This document shows positions 6,953 to 28,415 of a DNA stretch of 33,076 nucleotides, piece after piece; position 1 is the stretch's first letter, and every line of letters starts with the position of its first letter. A program made the translations under genes and the position numbers. The notes below the pieces were generated by a model, which did not search any database, had not been told where the DNA came from, and worked only from the letters and a program-made list of their open reading frames with translations. The DNA is from an uncultured Bacteroidota bacterium (GTDB lineage: Bacteria; Bacteroidota; Bacteroidia; UKL13-3), in the NCBI GenBank assembly GCA_903888395.1, contig CAISTO010000257.1, positions 1 through 33,076 of the forward strand. The letters are read 5' to 3'.

Positions 6953-9900
6953 TTATTGTTTTACAATTTTCATTGTTTTTACAACACCGTTAATACTAAT
7001 TTTTACTAAGTAAATACCAGCTGCCAAATTGCTTGTATTGCTTAATTTGATTGTACTTAAGCCAATAGTAACAGCTTCAGTTTGGCTCATTAAAATTCTA
7101 CCACTGATGTCAATTATTTGAACAGTACTGATTGTATTTTCAGTATTTAAAGTTTCAATATTTAATTCATTGCTAAACGGATTAGGATAAATGCTAATAC
7201 CATCACCAATTGCATCGTTAATTGAAACTTCTTTTATTGGCGATAAAGTAGATTTACCATCAAAATCTATTTGATTTAAACGATAATACAATTTTTGAAC
7301 TTGATTAATTGCAAATGGATTTTCATCAATAGAACTATAAATTACATTGTTATTTGAATTTCCTTCGCCTTTAACAAATGCAATTGTTTCAAATGTTTTT
7401 CCATTAACTGAGCGTTGAACGTCAAAGCCTTTGTTATTGATTTCGCTTGAAGTAATCCAAACTAATTTAACATCATCATTTACTTTTTTAGCTTCAAAAT
7501 AGCTTAGTTTAACTGGTAAAGTTGTTGTGTTATTTGAGGTAACTGAAGTAAATGCATTGTGCATATATTTACCATTGTATTCGTATACATCAAAAGTGTA
7601 GTTAGTAGCCATTGTTAAACCTGTAACCGCAACAGTATTTCCCGTTCCATTATAAATTACAAAGTTTCCAACACCAGTGGTATCACCCAATGAATAAATT
7701 GCGCTAGCATTATACAATTTATTATTAGTTGGAGCAACCGCAGAAGATGAGGTTAATCGAGCAACAATTAAACGTCTTTGTCCGTTACCAATTGTGCAAC
7801 TAACAGTAGCCGTAGTATTTGTAACTGACGAAATGGTAACAGCTGTAGCAGTAGAACTTGGTGTAGCAATATTTACTACTTCAATATCATCTATAGCCCA
7901 ACCTTCATCTACTACATAAGTATCAGATATAAAGCGGAAACGTACGCGAACATTAGATTGACTAGCAGCACCAGTTAAACGGAAAGCACTTTCAATCCAT
8001 CCGCTCACTTGGCTACCAAATACTGAACCTGAACCCATATCGGTTGAGAAATAAGGAGGAGCTAAAACGCCACCACTTGAAACATAGTTTACATTATCGT
8101 TATACCAAGCATAACTGTTTGTAGTATTAAAGTTAGCGCCTGTTCCAACTATGCTATCCAAACGGTTCCAGAAACCACCATTGATAGAAATTTCAACAAT
8201 TAAACCATCCCAATCAGTTTCAGCTTTAAATTTATGGCTAAAACGAACAATTGGATCAGCAGTATAAGAAGTAAAATCAAATTGCGGAGAAACGATTGAT
8301 GCATCGTGATCAATATCGTAAGTTCCTGTTAATTTAGTAGCCCAAGCTTTAGTTCCACTATGCGCACCACTTAAGTATGTTTTAGCGGGCGTTCCTAAAA
8401 CCCAATTGTTATTGGTAGGGAAACCAACAATCCAGTTTACGCTTGTACTTGTAGAAGAAAGCATAGAATGCCATCCACCTGCACCCGTTTCAAAGTTTTG
8501 TGAATAAGGTAAAGTTGAAATGATTGGATCTGTAGTAAAACTATCTATTACACTATAAGCAGTGCCAATACCATTGGTAGCATATGCTTTAAAATAATAC
8601 TTAGTTGAATGTGTTAATCCAGCAGGGTTAATAGAAAAAATTCCTAATGAAACAACTGGACTTGTAGTTGAGTCAATAGCACTACTTGAAACTGTTAATG
8701 GAGTAATAGAAGTATTATAAACTATACCACTTGCAGTTACTGTACTTCCGCCATCAGAGGTTATATTTCCACCGACTGTAGCAGTTGTTGAAGTTAAATT
8801 TGTAGCTGCAATTTTTAAAATAGTGGGAATTACTGCTGTAGAATTTGTGGTAAATGTACTATCAGCACCATAAGAAGTATCTACAGCATTAATTGCATAA
8901 GCTCTGTAATAATATAATGTAGAAATAGATAAACCAGTTGTGCCTTTTGTAAATGAACCAATAATTACTAATGGATTTGTAGTTGAATCAACTACTCCAA
9001 AAGCACCAAGTACGGGGGCAGAAGTTGTACTATAAACTATTCCACTTTTAGTAATTGTTGAATTTCCATTGCTAGTAATTGTACCAGTTAAATCGGCAGA
9101 GCTAGTAGTTAAATTTGTTTTTGTACCGGTAAATACTATTGGAGCTGTAGGTGCTACAACTTCAATATTATCAACTGCCACGCCTTCATCTGTTCCGCTT
9201 CCATCTGAACCAAAACGAATTCTAAACTTCACGTTTGACTGTCCAGCAGCACCGGTTAAAACTGTTTGACTTTGAATCCAATTTGAAACATTGCTTGAAA
9301 ACAAACTACTATTATCTGACCACTTATTAGCAGATATTGGTCCAGCAGTACTACTACTATTATACCAACTTAAGCTATTTGTGGTATTATAGTTTGAACC
9401 AGTTCCTAAAGTGTTATCAAGTTTAGTCCAAGTTCCACCATTAATAGATATTTCTAAAACACTTGCATCCCAACCAGTTTCAGTTGCAAAATTATGTCTG
9501 AATTTAACAATAGGATTTGCAGCATAACTTGTAAAATCAAATTGAGGAGAAACAAGCGCACCATCATGGTTATCAGAATAATTTGCTGCGGTAGAAGTAA
9601 ACCAACATTTTGGTGAACTATACGAACCACTTAATTGACTTTTTGCGGGAGTTCCAAGTACCCATTCATTTATACCACCAGTAGCTATTGAGTTCCATCC
9701 TGTTGTTCCAATACTATCAAAATTTTGAAAATAAGGTAAAACAGAAACTACGGGAGCAGTAGTAAAACTATCCAAACTACTATAAGCTGTTCCTATACTA
9801 TTTGTGGCATAAGCTTTAAAATAATATTTTGTAGAGTGAGTTAAACCTGAAGTAGAAAACGAATATGTGCCTATTGTAACTAAAGGGTTTGTAGTTGAAT

Positions 9901-12358
9901 CCGTAACCCCAGTTCCAAATAATAATGGATTAGTAGTAGTTGCATAAACAATACCACTTGAAGTAACAGTACTACCACCATCAGAAGTAATATTGCCTCC
10001 AAAAGTAGCAGTTAACGCAGTAATATTACTTGCGGCAATTCTTAAAACTGTAGGAATAACAGCACTTGCATTTGTTGTAATTGTACTGTCGGCACCGTAA
10101 GCAGTACCTACACTATTTATCGCGTAAGCTCTGTAATGATAAGTAGTAGAAAGGGATAAACCAGTTATGTTTCTTGTATAATTTCCAATAACCACTAAAG
10201 GATTTGTAGTTGAATCAACCACTCCTGTAGCACCTAAAACTGGAGTTGAAGCTAAGCTATAAACAATTCCACTTTTAGTAATTGTTGAGTTTCCATTGCT
10301 AGTAATTGAACCTAATAAATCAGCGGAGGCTGTGGTAACATTTGTTTTAGAACCTGTAACTACAATTGGTACAGTAGCAGGAAAAACTTCTACATTATCA
10401 AAAGCCCAACCTTCATCAGTACCGCCATAAGGATTTCCATCAAAGCGGAATCTAAATTTAACATTTGCTTGTCCAGCTGCTCCAGTTAAACGAGTAGTTG
10501 TTTGAATCCAGCCATTACTTTGTGAAGAATAAGCGGAGCTGTACCCAGTAAAAATACCACCTGATGATATCCAATTTGGACCATTATACCAAGCTATACT
10601 TCCATTTGAAGAATTAAAGTTTGTACCTGTTCCAAAATTATTATCTAATTTAGTCCAAGTTCCACCATTAATTGAAATTTCGATTGTAGCTGCATCATAA
10701 CCAGCTCCAAAAGGACTTAACCTGAATTTTTGTTGAAAACGTAAAACTGGATCTCCAACATGTGTTGTAAAATCAAACTGAGGAGAAGCAACAGCTGCAT
10801 TATTTGGCGAAATATTTGTATAATTACCACTGGTTTTAGTAACCCATGCATTTGGTGAACTAAATGCTGCACTTATGTTTGTTTTTGATGGTGTTCCAAC
10901 AACCCAATCGTTTGTAGCACCAGAAACTATATTACTTTTAAATCCTGAGTTTGTTAATGAATCAAAATTTTGGAAATAAGGCATAGCTGATACAATTGGA
11001 TCTGTAGTAAAACTATCTTGAACACTGTATGCTGTTCCAATACCATTGGTTGCATAAGCTTTATAATAGTATTTAGTGGAATGAACTAAACTAGCTGGAT
11101 TTACAGTTAAATTTCCTAATAAAACAGCTGGGGAAGTTGTAGAATCTATTACACTTGTTCCAAACAATAATGGATTTGTAATGGTTGAATAAACAAAACC
11201 ACTAGCTGTTACAGTAGAACCACCATCACTTGAAATATTGGCGTTTAAAGTAGCAGTTGTTGCTTGTAAATTTGTTAATGGTAATTTATTAACAGTGGGA
11301 ATAACTGCTGATGAATTAGTAGTAAATGTACTATCGGCACCATAAGAAGTTCCAACGCTATTGATTGCATAAGTTCTATAATAGTACAAAGTAGAGTTTG
11401 ATAAACCTGCAATATTTTTGGTAAATGAACCAGTTGTAATTACAGGATTTGTAGTTGAATCAATAACACCTGAACCTCCAATTATAGGATTTGCAGATGT
11501 ACCCACAATAATTCCACTTGTGGTAACAACTGGGTATTGGTTAATTGCTATTGAACCAGCTAATGTTACAGTATTTGTAGTAATATTTGTTTTAGTTCCA
11601 GTAAAAACTGTTGGTGCCGCTGGTGGCGGTGGTGTGTATGTAAATGTTAATCCATTAGTAGGTAAAATTGTATTTGTAAGTGATAAAGTACTAGAGTTAG
11701 CAGTTCCAGCGGTTGAAGTTATCCAACTTGTAGTGCTACTTCTATTCAAATAAATTGCACTTGAAGAACCTTTTATTCCAACTTGCACAGTATTTCCACC
11801 CGATGCTTTTACAAAACGACCATACATTATTTCTACTGTATTTGAAGTTTCGTTCAATCTAATTTGGAAATCAAATGAATCTAAACTGTTGGTTGAAGAA
11901 TTATACATTGCATAATTTTTCCATTGCATAACTAATGTTCTGTTAGGTGAACTTCCAATGGTATCAAAACGCATTTGACCTACAGTAGGCAATCCTTGTA
12001 AATCGGCATTTAAAGCAGAAATAATATTGTTTCCACCCGAACTGATTACAGAATAAGAAGAGTTTACAGTTGATCCTAAGGCTAAAAAACCATTTGAGTT
12101 TACACTAAAAGTAGTATAAGTTGCTCCACCATAAGTAAAGCTAAATCCTATTGGATTTGCGGGAAAACTACTGTCATCATTGGCAGCAACACCAAGCACT
12201 GTGCCTGTTGTTATAGGTGTGAAAGTTCCCGTGGTTTGGGAAAAAGAGTAAGTGTTTACTACTTGTGAGTTTGTGGTTTGAATAAAACCAACGCTCATAA
12301 GTAATAAAATAAAGAGTTTTGTAAAACTAGTAAATAGTTTTGTACTTGTTTTGTTCAT
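6953..12358 (-). CDS. Large T9SS type A cargo protein: N-terminal NIDO-like domain, 3x [FN3-FN3-MAM/InhA-like beta-sandwich], FN3, Ig-like, CTD
   Basis: Signal peptide, six 'YYxRAYAxNSxGTAYG'-type FN3 repeats, three 'PYFQNF...SPQFDFT...EISINGG...EGWAxDxxEV' modules, 'LPVKLSYFEA' and CTD 'IYPNPF...GIYLVKI...KIVKQ'. Confidence 0.85.
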   Translation of the reverse strand: MNKTSTKLFTSFTKLFILLLMSVGFIQTTNSQVVNTYSFSQTTGTFTPITTGTVLGVAANDDSSFPANPIGFSFTYGGATYTTFSVNSNGFLALGSTVNSSYSVISSGGNNIISALNADLQGLPTVGQMRFDTIGSSPNRTLVMQWKNYAMYNSSTNSLDSFDFQIRLNETSNTVEIMYGRFVKASGGNTVQVGIKGSSSAIYLNRSSTTSWITSTAGTANSSTLSLTNTILPTNGLTFTYTPPPPAAPTVFTGTKTNITTNTVTLAGSIAINQYPVVTTSGIIVGTSANPIIGGSGVIDSTTNPVITTGSFTKNIAGLSNSTLYYYRTYAINSVGTSYGADSTFTTNSSAVIPTVNKLPLTNLQATTATLNANISSDGGSTVTASGFVYSTITNPLLFGTSVIDSTTSPAVLLGNLTVNPASLVHSTKYYYKAYATNGIGTAYSVQDSFTTDPIVSAMPYFQNFDSLTNSGFKSNIVSGATNDWVVGTPSKTNISAAFSSPNAWVTKTSGNYTNISPNNAAVASPQFDFTTHVGDPVLRFQQKFRLSPFGAGYDAATIEISINGGTWTKLDNNFGTGTNFNSSNGSIAWYNGPNWISSGGIFTGYSSAYSSQSNGWIQTTTRLTGAAGQANVKFRFRFDGNPYGGTDEGWAFDNVEVFPATVPIVVTGSKTNVTTASADLLGSITSNGNSTITKSGIVYSLASTPVLGATGVVDSTTNPLVVIGNYTRNITGLSLSTTYHYRAYAINSVGTAYGADSTITTNASAVIPTVLRIAASNITALTATFGGNITSDGGSTVTSSGIVYATTTNPLLFGTGVTDSTTNPLVTIGTYSFSTSGLTHSTKYYFKAYATNSIGTAYSSLDSFTTAPVVSVLPYFQNFDSIGTTGWNSIATGGINEWVLGTPAKSQLSGSYSSPKCWFTSTAANYSDNHDGALVSPQFDFTSYAANPIVKFRHNFATETGWDASVLEISINGGTWTKLDNTLGTGSNYNTTNSLSWYNSSSTAGPISANKWSDNSSLFSSNVSNWIQSQTVLTGAAGQSNVKFRIRFGSDGSGTDEGVAVDNIEVVAPTAPIVFTGTKTNLTTSSADLTGTITSNGNSTITKSGIVYSTTSAPVLGAFGVVDSTTNPLVIIGSFTKGTTGLSISTLYYYRAYAINAVDTSYGADSTFTTNSTAVIPTILKIAATNLTSTTATVGGNITSDGGSTVTASGIVYNTSITPLTVSSSAIDSTTSPVVSLGIFSINPAGLTHSTKYYFKAYATNGIGTAYSVIDSFTTDPIISTLPYSQNFETGAGGWHSMLSSTSTSVNWIVGFPTNNNWVLGTPAKTYLSGAHSGTKAWATKLTGTYDIDHDASIVSPQFDFTSYTADPIVRFSHKFKAETDWDGLIVEISINGGFWNRLDSIVGTGANFNTTNSYAWYNDNVNYVSSGGVLAPPYFSTDMGSGSVFGSQVSGWIESAFRLTGAASQSNVRVRFRFISDTYVVDEGWAIDDIEVVNIATPSSTATAVTISSVTNTTATVSCTIGNGQRRLIVARLTSSSAVAPTNNKLYNASAIYSLGDTTGVGNFVIYNGTGNTVAVTGLTMATNYTFDVYEYNGKYMHNAFTSVTSNNTTTLPVKLSYFEAKKVNDDVKLVWITSSEINNKGFDVQRSVNGKTFETIAFVKGEGNSNNNVIYSSIDENPFAINQVQKLYYRLNQIDFDGKSTLSPIKEVSINDAIGDGISIYPNPFSNELNIETLNTENTISTVQIIDISGRILMSQTEAVTIGLSTIKLSNTSNLAAGIYLVKISINGVVKTMKIVKQ
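7880..11614 (-). repeat. Three intragenic tandem modules of about 1.23-1.25 kb
   Basis: Units begin near 11614 (PTVFTGTKTN), 10369 (PIVVTGSKTN) and 9142 (PIVFTGTKTN); spacings are 1245 and 1227 bp. DNA segments such as ggatttgtagttgaatcaac recur. Confidence 0.85.
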
Positions 12359-22114: not shown

Positions 22115-22558
22115 ATTTTTTTAAATTATCAAAATTCAAATTGGAAAACTTATAGCACAAATACTATAAAAAAAATTAAAAATTTAAAATGATTATGATT
22201 TTCAGGCAATTAAAAAATCCACTTTTCCACTTATCATAAATATATTTCTCAAAAATCAAGATTTTTAGCACCCTTCATTTTGACCAAAGCCTATTTTTTT
22301 TATAAATTTTATCATAAGTTTTTAATGTTTAACATTAACATAATATGATTTTTTTCCAAACTACTTCATCAGGTGTATTTTAGTATAAATATTTTAGCAT
22401 TTTTAATTGATAATTTTTTTCTTTTTTATTTAAATGTTATCAAGTATTATTTAATTATAAAATATGAAAAATTGTTTCAAACATTGTATTTGCTTAATGT
22501 TGTAATCTTTATAATTAAGTTTATAAGTTTAATTTTAAAAATAATTCAAAGTATAATC

Positions 22559-22855
22559 ATGATCGAATTTGCCAATAAGTTAGAAGATTACCGAAACCAA
22601 CTTTCACATTTAGACAATAAAATTATTGAATTATTGAGCCAAAGGGCTTTGATATCGAAAGAAATTGGAATTTTAAAAACAAATAATAAAATTGAAATTT
22701 ATCAAAATGATTTTTGGGAAAAATCGCAATTAATTAGAAGTAAAACTATTGAATCTACTAGTTTGAATGGTGCTATTTCGAATCAAATTTTTGATTTAAT
22801 ACACCAACAATCATTGCTAATTCAAGAAGACATTTTAAAACAAAAAAATGCATAA
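22559..22855 (+). CDS. Chorismate mutase type II (AroQ)-like protein
   Basis: 98 aa from ATG 22559: 'LEDYRNQLSHLDNKIIELLSQR...IGILK...IYQ...IHQQSLLIQ'. The upstream extension in the ORF track is AT-rich noise. Confidence 0.8.
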   Translation: MIEFANKLEDYRNQLSHLDNKIIELLSQRALISKEIGILKTNNKIEIYQNDFWEKSQLIRSKTIESTSLNGAISNQIFDLIHQQSLLIQEDILKQKNA

Positions 22856-24089
22856 TAATTTGGAATTACTTTCTCCCGCAGGTTCTTACGAATCGTTGAT
22901 GGCGGCTATTCATGCTGGCTGTAATTCAATATATTTTGGAATAGAACAACTGAATATGCGTGCGCGTTCAAATATCAATTTTACCATTGAAGACTTAGGA
23001 AAGATTTCAAAAATTTGTAAGGAAAATAATATCAAATCGTATTTAACTTTAAATACCGTTGTTTTTGATCACGATATTTCGTTAATGAAACGAATTGTAG
23101 ATGCCGCTAAAGCAAATGGCATTAGCGCAATCATAGCAACAGATTTGTCGGTTTTGAATTATGCCAAAAAAGTGCAAATGAATGTTCATATTTCTACCCA
23201 ATCAAATATCACAAATATTGACACCGTTGAATTTTTCTCTGTTTATTCCGATGTAATGGTTTTGGCGCGAGAACTTAGTTTAACGCAAGTAGGTGAAATT
23301 ACCAATGAAATAAAAAGACGTGATATTACTGGACCTTCGGGTGAGTTAGTAAAAATTGAAATATTTGGTCACGGAGCATTGTGCATGGCAGTTTCGGGTA
23401 AATGTTATTTAAGTTTACATTCTAATTATGCCTCGGCAAATAGAGGTGCTTGTATTCAAAATTGCCGCAAAAGTTATGTAGTAATTGACAAAGAAGATGG
23501 CGTGGAATTAGAAATTGACAACGAATATATTATGTCGGCTAAGGATTTATGCACCATTGATTTTATGGATCAAATTATTCAGTCAGGAGTTGCTGTATTA
23601 AAAATTGAGGGTAGAGGAAGAAGTGCTGATTATGTTTCTACTGTTACCAAATGCTACCGTGAGGCCATTGATTCGTACTATAATAACTCATTTACAAATG
23701 AAAAAATAGTAGCATGGAGAAACCAATTATCTACAGTTTATAACAGAGGTTTTTGGGATGGATATTATCTTGGAAAAACAATGGGTGAATGGAGCAATGA
23801 ATATGGTTCAAAAGCTACCAAACGAAAGGTAATGATCGGCAAGGGAATTCGGTATTTTAAAGAAGCTAAAGTGGGCGAATTCCAGTTAGAAGCTCAAACA
23901 CTTTCTGTAGGTGATGAAATTTTAATTACTGGTCCAACTACCGGTGTGGTTCAAACTTTTGTAAAAGAAATGCGTTTGGATAATATCAATATCATTAAAG
24001 TAAATAAAGGAGATTCGTTTACCATTCAATTAGATGAATTGATAAGACCATCAGACAAATTATTTAAACTGGTTCCCACCAATGATTAG
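22848..24089 (+). CDS. Peptidase U32 family Fe-S protein, TrhP-like
   Basis: 'ELLSPAGS', 'LARELSL', Cys cluster 'EIFGHGALCMAVSGKCYLS...NRGACIQNCR', 'KDLC', 'LKIEGR' and a short beta-barrel C-domain. It has no long RlhA-type extension. Confidence 0.9.
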   Translation: MHNNLELLSPAGSYESLMAAIHAGCNSIYFGIEQLNMRARSNINFTIEDLGKISKICKENNIKSYLTLNTVVFDHDISLMKRIVDAAKANGISAIIATDLSVLNYAKKVQMNVHISTQSNITNIDTVEFFSVYSDVMVLARELSLTQVGEITNEIKRRDITGPSGELVKIEIFGHGALCMAVSGKCYLSLHSNYASANRGACIQNCRKSYVVIDKEDGVELEIDNEYIMSAKDLCTIDFMDQIIQSGVAVLKIEGRGRSADYVSTVTKCYREAIDSYYNNSFTNEKIVAWRNQLSTVYNRGFWDGYYLGKTMGEWSNEYGSKATKRKVMIGKGIRYFKEAKVGEFQLEAQTLSVGDEILITGPTTGVVQTFVKEMRLDNINIIKVNKGDSFTIQLDELIRPSDKLFKLVPTND

Positions 24090-24309
24090 AATAGTTCAGC
24101 AACGGGCTAAATGTATAGGTTGTAATATATGTGAGGAAGCCGCACCTTACCGCTGGCGAATGTCAAAGAAAGATGGAAAATGCACGTTAATAGGTGGAAC
24201 AGAGAAGAAAGGTTTTTTTTCTATATCTGTTGGCGATGACGAATGGGACGACCAAGTTAAAGCAGCCAAACATTGCCCTGTGAATATTATAAAAATAGGG
24301 AAGTTTTAA
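24082..24309 (+). CDS. Single-cluster ferredoxin
   Basis: CxxCxxC ('CIGCNIC') plus distal 'CP'; 75 aa; 8-bp overlap with the U32 stop. Confidence 0.85.
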   Translation: MIRIVQQRAKCIGCNICEEAAPYRWRMSKKDGKCTLIGGTEKKGFFSISVGDDEWDDQVKAAKHCPVNIIKIGKF

Positions 24310-27713: not shown

Positions 27714-28415
27714 TTAATATTCAATAGTTAAATGGTTGAGGTTTTCTTCACTATGAATTGATCTATGAAACTTTTCATATTCATTCTTACTTCCAAACCA
27801 TTCCATTACTTGGTGTTTGGATAGTTTACTTGATTTATTGGACATATGTCCATGGTATGATGAGTGAGCATAATCTTTAAAATCATTTACAAATCCATGC
27901 TTTTGTGGATTGAAATGTATGTACCAAATTAGTTGGGTAAAATATGTTTCCGAATTAACCAGTTTTCTTTTAAAAGGTGTTTCAAAAAGGCCACCGGTTC
28001 TACTTTGAGATTTATTTATACTTTTGGTGTAAGAGTTAAACAAATCAGAAAATTTTTTACTAACTAATCTATCTGGTGAGTGTAAACCTTTATTTGCATA
28101 TAGACCTGACAGGTTTTTAAAACCTGTCAGGTCTTTGCTGTTTTTAAAACTTGTCAGGTCATCGCTACTTTTAAAATTTGTTAGGTCCTCGTTAATCTCA
28201 AAACCAGACATTTCTTTTACTCGTACCAATAAATGAAAATGATTTCCTAACAAACAATACGCAAATGTCTCCAAAACTTCATCCATATAAAAAGAGTATT
28301 TTTGTAAGAAATACAAATAATTCCTTTCCTCAAAAAACAAATTAGTTCCATTTATACCTCTATTGTATATATGATAATACTTTCCTAGTTCTAATGGGCT
28401 TTCATTTGTTTTCAT
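27714..28415 (-). CDS. REP-associated tyrosine transposase (RAYT / IS200-like Y1 HUH nuclease)
   Basis: 'YYHIYNRG', HUH motif 'YCLLGNHFHLL', 'RTGGLF', catalytic-Tyr region 'YIHFNPQKHG' and 'SSY'. Flanked by palindromes; no TnpB partner. Confidence 0.88.
   Translation of the reverse strand: MKTNESPLELGKYYHIYNRGINGTNLFFEERNYLYFLQKYSFYMDEVLETFAYCLLGNHFHLLVRVKEMSGFEINEDLTNFKSSDDLTSFKNSKDLTGFKNLSGLYANKGLHSPDRLVSKKFSDLFNSYTKSINKSQSRTGGLFETPFKRKLVNSETYFTQLIWYIHFNPQKHGFVNDFKDYAHSSYHGHMSNKSSKLSKHQVMEWFGSKNEYEKFHRSIHSEENLNHLTIEY
28102..28214. repeat. Intragenic REP palindrome plus in-frame 27-bp tandem half-repeats
   Basis: Full palindrome 28102-28134 is identical to 27671-27703. Units start at 28114, 28141, 28168 and (degenerate) 28195, encoding 'KEMSGFEIN-EDLTNFKSS-DDLTSFKNS-KDLTGFKNL-SGL'. 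Confidence 0.9.

Follow-up and report, generated by a model that had tools for sequence, protein, structure and literature searches.

A chorismate mutase-U32-ferredoxin operon of an uncultured Bacteroidota bacterium as a candidate prephenate-dependent hydroxylase module

A three-gene operon and its U32 protein

The window, by which we mean the whole stretch of 33,076 nucleotides analyzed, carries an operon of three plus-strand ORFs: a chorismate mutase (CM) gene of the AroQ class (22559..22855; 98 aa, ATG at 22559), a U32 gene (22848..24089; 413 aa) and a ferredoxin gene (24082..24309; 75 aa). The CM and U32 genes share 8 bp, ATGCATAA at 22848-22855, and the U32 and ferredoxin genes share another 8 bp, ATGATTAG at 24082-24089, so that at either junction the ATG of the next gene and the stop codon of the preceding one fall within the same eight bases. 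A preliminary description of the locus had reported three genes joined by two 8-bp start/stop overlaps with no aromatic amino acid genes nearby, and both statements are borne out: the ORFs and overlap strings are confirmed, and there are no aromatic amino acid genes within the 33-kb window. Its other genes include a SusC/SusD pair and those for a Gate-domain transporter, a ClC channel, a urocanase, an S46 peptidase and a YebC-like protein. Between the start of a divergent SusC-like gene (22114) and the CM start lies a 444-bp intergenic region (22115..22558, plus strand) of 17% G+C. Bacteroidota promoters differ from the sigma-70 type and have the -7 consensus TAnnTTTG, a motif absent from this region.

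The U32 protein matches the Pfam Peptidase_U32 family (PF01136) at 213.7 bits against a cut-off of 22.4. It contains an exact CX6CX15CX3C motif (23382..23465, plus strand; aa 179-206), described as the [4Fe-4S] motif of U32 hydroxylases (PMC11574389), which is found in 84 of 86 alignment rows, including all 81 orthologues as well as E. coli TrhP and RlhA. Orthologues across 80 loci share 57-94% identity. The AF2 model (pLDDT 80.3) consists of a TIM barrel and a beta barrel, the latter forming a C-terminal domain at 23820..24077 (plus strand; aa ~325-410). Sequence and profile searches gave no match among solved structures, and Foldseek mainly ranked generic TIM barrels, the U32 structure 5D88 coming 20th.

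To place the protein among U32 enzymes, equivalog models, domains and a phylogenetic tree were compared. The best NCBIfam match is TrhP (NF011996), with 186.3 bits against a cut-off of 534, whereas E. coli TrhP itself scores 875.4 bits; UbiU (NF047963) is second best, with 160 bits against 440, and UbiV (NF047965) reaches 45.5 bits against 275. The Pfam U32_C domain (PF16325) gave no match in the window protein at E <= 1 and matched 18 of 43 orthologues weakly (best E, 3.9e-4), and an hhalign comparison of the C-terminal domain with the E. coli TrhP C terminus is weak (probability, 0.8%). Nor did the phylogeny proposed in the preliminary description join the protein to TrhP, as the window clade stands apart from E. 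coli TrhP in a U32 tree where very long and unresolved branches lead to the E. coli reference paralogues. A YegQ-type TrhP orthologue was thus considered and rejected, on the score of 186 bits against 534 and the undetected U32_C; Sakai et al. (2019), in the part of that work bearing on the question, likewise do not count Bacteroidota proteins as trhP orthologues. RlhA (E. coli YdcP), the 23S rRNA ho5C2501 synthase of a prephenate-dependent family, shares the U32 domain and Cys motif but differs in its DUF3656 domain (PF12392), which is absent from the window protein. The same genome encodes a separate RlhA-type paralogue on another contig (L001:1279-3138), with U32 and DUF3656 domains (DUF3656, 82.4 bits), that groups with E. 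coli RlhA (SH-aLRT, 96).

The U32 superfamily has been divided into 12 subfamilies, mostly uncharacterized, and in Table S2 of the same study Bacteroidetes are listed with a single RlhA1 and a single PepU32#4 protein (Kimura et al. 2017). The reference members of PepU32#4 are PRTC1_PORGI, A5FLH8_FLAJ1 and Q8A383_BACTN, such that Porphyromonas gingivalis PrtC sits with the non-RlhA U32 proteins of F. johnsoniae and B. thetaiotaomicron (Kimura et al. 2017). The genome studied here has the same pattern, one U32 plus DUF3656 protein and the window U32, which by this two-paralogue pattern probably belongs to the PrtC/PepU32#4 subfamily. No hydroxylase role for PrtC was found in the literature consulted.

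The U32-ferredoxin pair, the C-terminal barrel and the substrate

The window ferredoxin has a single [4Fe-4S] cluster and matches Pfam Fer4_15 at 39.1 bits (cut-off, 22.4) and Fer4_13 at 31.6 bits; all 76 sequences compared retain the CxxCxxC...CP ligand residues C11, C14, C17, C65 and P66 without exception. A ferredoxin gene lies directly 3' of U32 in 75 of the 80 loci, which span Bacteroidota, Balneolota, Ignavibacteriota and Chlorobiota, while the other neighbors vary. U32 proteins from other Bacteroidota families that are 35-52% identical to the window's have no adjacent ferredoxin. The conserved unit is U32-ferredoxin, with CM an accessory beside it, and the 75-aa ferredoxin appears to be a dedicated U32 partner and putative electron carrier. 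YfhL, which the preliminary description had linked to the TrhP route, is in comparison a two-cluster ferredoxin; no paper treating yfhL together with yegQ or ho5U was found in the literature searched. In up to six loci the ferredoxin is followed 3' by a PNPOx-like flavoprotein-type gene, with Pfam evidence in four.

A closer look at the C-terminal barrel shows a relationship to TrhO. An hhalign comparison of A2 with the TrhO C-terminal extension of L079 gives a probability of 99.4% (E, 8.3e-22; 39% identity over 85 columns), and tblastn with the long TrhO of L110 finds a match at positions 23832-24074 of the window. By these alignments, the U32 barrel and the additional domain at the C terminus of long-form TrhO from Flavobacterium and relatives are homologous, and the barrel is likely a substrate-recognition module. 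The catalytic fold of TrhO (YceA/YbfQ) is, in contrast, a rhodanese unrelated to U32, and the enzyme uses O2. In two genomes, L079 (with 1-bp overlaps) and L110, TrhO lies immediately upstream in TrhO-U32-ferredoxin clusters; the gene adjoins U32 in 1 of the 80 loci, the second genome having been found later. The barrel held in common with long-form TrhO and the existence of these clusters point to a tRNA U34 target, which we favor as the most likely one for the window U32. The preliminary description had argued for a TrhP-like tRNA target from size and C-terminal domain; the tRNA target gains support from the barrel and the clusters, while TrhP orthology does not (186 versus 534 bits).

The resemblance to TrhP (E. 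coli YegQ; TrhP1/TrhP2, that is YrrO/YrrN, in Bacillus subtilis), which performs prephenate-dependent tRNA U34 hydroxylation, extends to the Peptidase_U32 TIM barrel, the CX6CX15CX3C motif and a beta barrel that follows the U32 domain at the C terminus. It also includes probable coexistence with TrhO as a second ho5U route: TrhO is detected in the same genome at 254.9 bits (cut-off, 170), in an ORF that runs off its contig. The two differ in that the window U32 falls below the equivalog cut-off, has a C-terminal domain that Pfam does not recognize as U32_C, belongs to a separate clade, and has a dedicated single-cluster ferredoxin and its own CM gene, with no trmR adjacent. A Methyltransf_3 protein is present in the genome, CmoA was not found there, and no TrmR-like gene lies within 3 kb of U32 in any of the 80 loci. 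A 2026 review lists only TrhP and TrhO for ho5U in the part that covers it (PMC13602947), and no paper on xo5U in Bacteroidota tRNAs was found in the literature.

The alternative that survives best, though we consider it rather unlikely, is a prephenate-dependent hydroxylase with a substrate other than tRNA U34, be it another RNA position, a quinone or a small aromatic molecule. Consistent with such a substrate, the window U32 is no TrhP equivalog and has UbiU as its second-best NCBIfam match, its subfamily is without a characterized substrate, like most of the 12 (Kimura et al. 2017), its neighbors are mostly unrelated to tRNA, and the PNPOx-like gene follows the ferredoxin in several loci. 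UbiU-UbiV, which act with UbiT as O2-independent ubiquinone hydroxylases, are also U32 Fe-S proteins that use prephenate as oxygen donor (PMC10990095), but they work as a heterodimeric pair, joined by a lipid-carrier partner, and have variant Cys spacing. Arguing for U34 instead are the barrel in common with long-form TrhO, a family of tRNA U34 hydroxylases, and the TrhO-U32-ferredoxin clusters; in addition, orthologues that stay 57-94% identical in several phyla are in keeping with a macromolecular substrate of a housekeeping kind, and the known rRNA site is already served by the RlhA-type paralogue.

The small chorismate mutase and its link to U32 enzymes

The CM protein matches Pfam CM_2 (PF01817) at 45.8 bits (cut-off, 27) over profile positions 1-80 of 80, and it falls below the cut-offs of all NCBIfam CM equivalog models. 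The longest ORF in its frame begins with a GTG at 22373, adding 62 AT-rich, low-complexity residues; L004, with a U32 protein 94% identical to the window's, encodes a 99-aa CM from the corresponding ATG. Residues R12, R29, K40, Q49, H82 and Q89 are invariant across U32-linked CMs and the CM domains fused to DAHP synthase (DAHPS) in Bacteroidota. The active site of E. coli CM comprises R11, R28, K39, D48, R51, E52, S84 and Q88. In E. coli PheA numbering, R11, R28 and K39 are invariant and S84 and Q88 are kept, while at positions 48, 51 and 52 the window CM has Q, F and W, and Bacteroidota DAHPS-fused domains have Q, H/R and W. The window CM is thus without the R51 and E52 of the E. coli enzyme. 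A loss of catalytic residues was considered and rejected, as the same Q..W variant is found in the DAHPS-fused domains.

The nearest known relatives in this respect are the CM-linked DAH7P synthases of Prevotella nigrescens and P. gingivalis, which share with the window CM both the Q..W variant and the unchanging R, R, K and Q. There, CM is fused to DAH7P synthase, whereas here it is a free-standing 98-aa protein and the DAHP synthase of the genome is unfused. CM activity has been measured for the DAHPS-CM architecture of P. nigrescens, DAHPS-fused CM domains are reported as the sole CM source in such organisms, and the CM site of C-terminal CM-linked DAH7PS doubles as an allosteric prephenate site (PMC8408635). 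None of 167 candidates proved to be a longer protein with the window-type CM fused into it, which is weak evidence, and co-folding of U32 with two CM copies scored 0.00, which gives no support and is neutral either way.

Of 81 genomes compared, 8 have a CM_2 gene next to U32-ferredoxin. The CM-U32-ferredoxin order recurs in L004, L014, L030, G482, G497 and G531, and the CM-U32 order in G503, where gene calling found no ferredoxin; this recurrence in relatives indicates more than chance juxtaposition. Three placements are seen: CM may precede U32 in the same orientation, it may follow the ferredoxin gene, or a divergent gene may encode a ~250-270-aa protein with a C-terminal CM domain. On the U32 tree the adjacency requires at least five changes or places. 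The CM-U32-ferredoxin neighborhood thus recurs, in three arrangements, but broad conservation belongs to U32-ferredoxin (75/80) and not to CM (8/81). In seven of the eight CM-adjacent genomes the adjoining CM is the only CM_2 found, and neither prephenate dehydratase (PDT) nor PDH_N was found in any of the eight. In most relatives, the sole CM is a domain fused to DAHP synthase and encoded at another place in the genome. The relation of CM adjacency to PDT loss comprises just four to five independent pairs on the tree, too few for phylogenetic control. In the CM_2 search of 401 genomes, the best 150 matches were listed and weak U32-linked CMs lay below them, and the tallies and the list of CM_2-less genomes were used. 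Two genomes outside the window's family, G300 (99% complete) and G520 (97% complete), have U32 with no CM_2 found.

The association is clearest in the window's own family, sampled with 37 genomes, most of them 96-100% complete. PDT was found in none of the 37, and PDH_N in none of five CM-positive members nor in the window's own genome (G000), whereas chorismate synthase is present in five of five CM-negative members and in G000. In the latter, which is 88% complete, a Pfam profile search found the window CM as the sole CM_2 match. By raw counts, with kinship ignored, CM_2 occurs in 9 of the 37 genomes, all 9 with a U32 gene; U32 occurs in 10, the single one without CM being 77% complete, and 27 have neither. 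As CM is confined to U32-bearing genomes of a family with no PDT found, it is most likely retained for the single purpose of supplying U32 enzymes with prephenate, and the functional tie of CM to U32 enzymes put forward in the preliminary description is strongly backed by comparative genomics. A CM private to the neighboring U32 was rejected, since G483, of the same genus, has CM in conserved synteny but no U32-ferredoxin beside it, and still carries an RlhA-type U32. The idea that the operon packages donor supply, hydroxylase and carrier together accordingly stands for the three-gene join and falls for an exclusive CM.

It is quite improbable that the small CM is non-catalytic and serves U32 as a chorismate- or prephenate-binding subunit for delivery or regulation. 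The low CM_2 scores of such proteins (37-53 bits, versus 62-92 bits in fused domains), Q, F and W at E. coli positions 48, 51 and 52, and the precedent of the allosteric prephenate site (PMC8408635) would fit such a role. However, the Q..W variant is also that of DAHPS-fused domains reported active (PMC8408635), CM persists in G483 without an adjacent U32, and the small CM is the sole CM_2 in seven genomes, so that no other prephenate source was found there. Still less credible is a housekeeping Phe/Tyr enzyme incidentally adjacent to U32: although CM_2 domains are standard in amino acid biosynthesis and the window's genome is just 88% complete, PDT was found in none of the 37 mostly near-complete family genomes and PDH_N in none of five CM-positive members nor in G000, CM occurs in the family only alongside U32, and the adjacency, here with two 8-bp overlaps, recurs in three arrangements. 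Equally hard to sustain is a collagenase-type peptidase, as PrtC was first described, with CM and ferredoxin as unrelated neighbors, since despite relatives annotated "putative protease" or "U32 family peptidase" and the position of PrtC in PepU32#4 (Kimura et al. 2017), the protein has the invariant Fe-S motif of U32 hydroxylases, an N terminus (MHNNLELLSPAG) that reads as free of a signal peptide, a ferredoxin coupled directly 3' in 75 of 80 loci, co-occurrence with CM and a domain in common with TrhO.

A proposed prephenate-dependent hydroxylase module

We therefore return to the reading that we hold to be probable, though by a modest measure of confidence, in which the operon is an O2-independent, prephenate-dependent hydroxylase module with tRNA U34 as its most likely substrate. 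Genetic evidence shows that TrhP, RlhA and UbiU/V need prephenate, which is the oxygen donor in ubiquinone synthesis (PMC6599085, PMC5727448, PMC10990095). From the observed gene order, domains, motifs, co-occurrence and domain sharing, we infer the catalytic steps, the substrate and the way in which electrons flow as follows. CM would convert chorismate, still made in this genome, to prephenate. The U32 TIM barrel, with a [4Fe-4S] cluster on CX6CX15CX3C, would use the C4-hydroxyl of prephenate as oxygen donor, and the two electrons of the reaction would be removed or passed on by the [4Fe-4S] ferredoxin. tRNA U34 would become ho5U and then probably mo5U via a TrmR-like methyltransferase, making the module an anaerobic counterpart of the TrhO in the same genome. 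The U32-ferredoxin pair would be ancestral, with CM placed beside it in lineages, including this one, that lost the fused DAHP synthase-CM together with the entire Phe/Tyr branch; in such lineages, prephenate would have one known use, by U32 enzymes, here the window U32 and the RlhA-type paralogue.

A broader version of this proposal can be offered only tentatively. CM-U32-ferredoxin might be a complete portable machine needing chorismate and an electron sink, the ferredoxin the long-missing U32 electron acceptor and the barrel a movable module for tRNA-anticodon recognition, with prephenate serving Phe/Tyr-auxotrophic Bacteroidota in a cofactor-like way, solely for RNA hydroxylation. We found no description of a CM-U32-ferredoxin module in the literature. 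In the passages of two 2024 papers that address the point, U32 hydroxylases have no in vitro reconstitution and their electron acceptor is called unidentified (PMC10990095, PMC11574389), as it is for UbiU-UbiV specifically (PMC10990095). A U32 subfamily with its own ferredoxin and its own prephenate source names candidate partners for such reconstitution. In family genomes without the Phe/Tyr branch, CM survives only where a U32 gene survives, a co-occurrence that offers independent evidence, from natural history, for a dependence of the whole class of U32 enzymes on prephenate. If the proposal is true, it would assign a role to the Bacteroidota "collagenase" family of PrtC and predict xo5U-type wobble modification by two routes in this phylum. 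In keeping with a tRNA target, genes for wobble-base enzymes (TadA-like, MnmC-like and QueD) also neighbor U32 in a few loci.

The operon and its conserved core

The chorismate mutase (CM) gene encodes a 98-aa AroQ protein (22559-22855; CM_2, 45.8 bits against a cut-off of 27) and is followed on the same strand by genes for a 413-aa Peptidase_U32 Fe-S protein, hereafter U32 (22848-24089; Peptidase_U32, 213.7 bits), and a 75-aa ferredoxin (24082-24309; Fer4_15, 39.1 bits; Fer4_13, 31.6 bits). As a string check on the window sequence finds ATGCATAA at 22848-22855 and ATGATTAG at 24082-24089, the CM/U32 and U32/ferredoxin junctions are 8-base start/stop overlaps. ORF positions and junction strings thus bear out the overlaps reported in the preliminary description, and the three genes form a real operon. 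The same description placed no aromatic amino acid genes nearby, and indeed none of the other genes in the 33-kb window has to do with aromatic amino acids; among them are a SusC/SusD pair, a Gate-domain transporter, a ClC channel, urocanase and an S46 peptidase. Elsewhere in the window, positions 6953-12358 (-) encode a predicted secreted protein of 1801 aa with MAM-like and reelin-like repeats and a type IX secretion C-terminal sorting domain. For a 233-aa ORF at 27714-28415 (-), Pfam gives nothing at E <= 1e-5; the protein contains in its interior a series of short, similar segments (DLTNFKSS, DLTSFKNS, DLTGFKNL), and its N-terminal part looks like a REP-associated/IS200-type transposase.

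To survey U32, one genome per species was scanned, yielding 80 loci from Bacteroidota, Balneolota, Ignavibacteriota and Chlorobiota whose orthologues are 57-94% identical to the window U32. The linkage of all three genes suggested earlier holds in part: a ferredoxin homologue lies directly downstream of U32 in 75 of the 80 loci (the exceptions being L054, L067, L069, L077 and L083), but a CM_2 gene adjoins the pair in only 8 of 81 genomes. All other neighbours of U32 are variable, and the conserved unit is U32-ferredoxin. Residues C11, C14, C17, C65 and P66 of the ferredoxin are invariant in 76/76 sequences. Likewise, CX6CX15CX3C (aa 179-206), the motif given for U32 "oxidases" (PMC11574389), is found in 81/81 window-U32 orthologues, as well as in E. 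coli TrhP and RlhA. Where U32 proteins of other Bacteroidota families share just 35-52% identity with the window U32, no ferredoxin adjoins them.

In six loci, a protein of ~145-160 aa, forming one BLAST cluster, follows the ferredoxin (L010:4418-4900, L013:4457-4918, L015:4457-4903, L049:1764-2237, L056:4468-4896 and L057). Four of the five scanned proteins weakly match PNPOx_N, an FMN-binding split barrel (E 1.7e-6 to 4e-3); that of L056 gave no match. This PNPOx-like protein could be a further redox partner.

The preliminary description favored a TrhP-like tRNA target for U32. TrhP is the best NCBIfam model, but its 186 bits fall below the cut-off of 534, and UbiU comes second (160 bits, below its cut-off of 440). 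A quick maximum-likelihood tree groups the 81 window-U32 orthologues together (SH-aLRT 92). The second U32 of the window's genome has DUF3656, which makes it RlhA-type, and it pairs with E. coli RlhA (SH-aLRT 96). In this phylogeny, of the kind proposed earlier, the branches of E. coli TrhP, UbiU and UbiV are very long and unresolved. Bacteroidetes are listed with one RlhA1 and one PepU32#4 protein, P. gingivalis PrtC belonging to the latter (Kimura et al. 2017, Table S2 for the distribution). As our genome has the same two-gene pattern, the window U32 is probably PepU32#4, an assignment made from this pattern. Orthologues of trhP are found chiefly among beta- and gammaproteobacteria and in some deltaproteobacteria, with trhP1/trhP2 in Firmicutes; other PepU32 subfamilies have been proposed as functional stand-ins, #4 not being discussed in the part of that paper available to us (Sakai et al. 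2019).

Chorismate mutase and its association with U32

An alignment of E. coli PheA and TyrA with 15 Bacteroidota-group sequences shows R11, L25, R28 and K39 to be invariant, and U32-linked CMs and those fused to DAHP synthase all keep R12, R29, K40, Q49, H82 and Q89 (window numbering). The window CM has Q, F and W at the sites of E. coli CM D48, R51 and E52. The DAHP synthase-fused domains have Q, H/R and W at E. coli sites 48/51/52, which speaks for a lineage variant rather than decay of the active site. CM activity has been measured for the C-terminal CM-linked DAH7PS of Prevotella nigrescens, and fusions of this kind are described as frequently the sole source of CM where they occur (PMC8408635).

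The eight adjacencies differ in arrangement and require at least five changes on the U32 protein tree. CM lies upstream on the same strand in the window, L004, L014 and L030, and downstream of the ferredoxin in L053; in L032, L042 and L058 a divergently transcribed protein of ~250-270 aa has a C-terminal CM domain. These longer proteins, with a ~160-aa N-terminal region lacking a Pfam match before CM_2, are encoded at L032:2184-2921 (-), L042:2182-2919 (-), L058:2204-3001 (-), L116:2776-3537 (+) and L119:33-809 (+); G501 and G525 have one without an adjacent U32.

All 80 genomes of the U32 survey have a CM_2 domain. In the 73 without adjacency, it lies in a long frame (>=349 aa) with four exceptions: G005, which looks like a frameshifted fusion, and G030, G040 and G045, each with an ordinary free-standing CM and prephenate dehydratase (PDT). 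Three long frames that were read through are DAHP synthases with a C-terminal CM, and other long frames also contain PDT or prephenate dehydrogenase matches. The adjoining CM is the sole CM_2 found in seven of the eight adjacency genomes, and PDT and the prephenate dehydrogenase domain PDH_N are absent from all eight. PDT and PDH_N each occur in 34/80 survey genomes; about 44 of the 80 (G001-G080) have neither, CM_2 being kept, mostly fused to DAHP synthase.

Within the window's own family (36 relatives plus its own genome, 37 in all), CM_2 occurs in nine genomes, the same count by Pfam and by a U32-linked CM profile, and any U32 gene in ten. All nine CM carriers also carry U32, and the one U32 carrier without CM is an assembly of 77% completeness; the 27 genomes with neither are mostly 96-100% complete. 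The chance of such nesting is ~8e-8, a figure that ignores kinship, so that its true weight is lower. PDT is found in 0/37 family genomes, and PDH_N in none of five high-quality CM-positive members nor in the window's genome, whose DAHP synthase has no CM domain. Chorismate synthase is present in 5/5 CM-negative members and in the window's genome.

The U32 types are mixed, with only the RlhA type in G483, G496 and G501 and only the window type in G497, G503 and G509. In G483, from the same genus, the window synteny of SusC-like gene, CM, Gate transporter and ClC channel is kept (L114, G483:C2:23500-29500), U32-ferredoxin is missing between CM and the transporter, and an RlhA-type U32 lies elsewhere. 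G483 and the mixed types indicate that CM is tied to U32 enzymes in general, beyond its neighbor. Outside the family, any U32 occurs in 1/20 CM_2-less genomes (eight of them from one family) versus 14/41 CM_2-positive genomes sampled at one per family, or 15/61 overall. Two genomes, G300 (99% complete) and G520 (97%, with PDT), have a window-type U32 and no CM_2 match; a CM of a different type or a gap in the assembly may account for this. The comparative evidence for a CM-U32 dependency is unusually clean.

Proposed chemistry and candidate substrate

CM would convert chorismate to prephenate. U32 would then withdraw two electrons from the substrate base and capture the hydroxyl released on prephenate decarboxylation, as has been proposed for UbiU/V (PMC10990095). 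Electrons would pass from the U32 cluster to ferredoxin and a further sink, and the PNPOx-like protein, encoded after the ferredoxin in as many as six loci and recognized by Pfam in four of them, may sit on this path. We found no published description of a CM-U32-ferredoxin module or of a function for the window-U32 subfamily in a search of largely open-access literature, nor in the accessible portions of reviews of the field. The operon would represent a new form of the prephenate-dependent U32 hydroxylase theme.

An AF2 model of the window U32 (pLDDT 80.3) shows a TIM barrel and, C-terminal to it, a beta barrel at residues ~325-410. The latter is homologous to the ~90 C-terminal residues of a 452-aa long form of TrhO (hhalign probability 99.4%, E 8.3e-22, 39% identity over 85 columns), and tblastn with long-form TrhO gives a match at window positions 23832-24074. 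The barrel is common to 619 database proteins at E <= 1e-5; the best 120 of these all have TrhO-type Pfam domains and many, where named, are from Flavobacterium. TrhO is an O2-dependent tRNA U34 hydroxylase (PMC6599085). Long forms of ~450-475 aa with the C-terminal barrel are encoded immediately upstream of U32-ferredoxin in L079:1900-3258 (+), with 1-bp overlaps, and L110:3387-4745 (-), and also at G107:C2:220594-221880, in a genome where no U32 gene was found. As TrhO and U32 have unrelated catalytic folds, their shared accessory domain and occasional shared cluster are best explained by a common substrate.

Besides TrhO (NF001133, 254.9 bits, cut-off 170), the window's genome encodes a Methyltransf_3 protein of 216 aa, a possible TrmR, and lacks CmoA. 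Against U34 count the rarity of TrhO beside U32 (1/80 loci), the lack of a TrmR-like gene within 3 kb of U32 (0/80), a weak hhalign match between the U32 C-terminal domain and the E. coli TrhP C terminus, and a literature search that found no report of xo5U in Bacteroidota tRNA. Judged from sequence comparison, the case for tRNA U34 as the putative U32 substrate is good but indirect. Weaker hints of a tRNA target are Pfam U32_C matches in 18/43 window-U32 orthologues and TadA-like, MnmC-like, QueD and TsaE genes adjoining U32 in a few loci. A TadA-like deaminase follows U32-ferredoxin in L068 and L074, and an MnmC-type methyltransferase domain (Methyltransf_30) precedes it in L068; these genes are a small wobble-base modification cluster.
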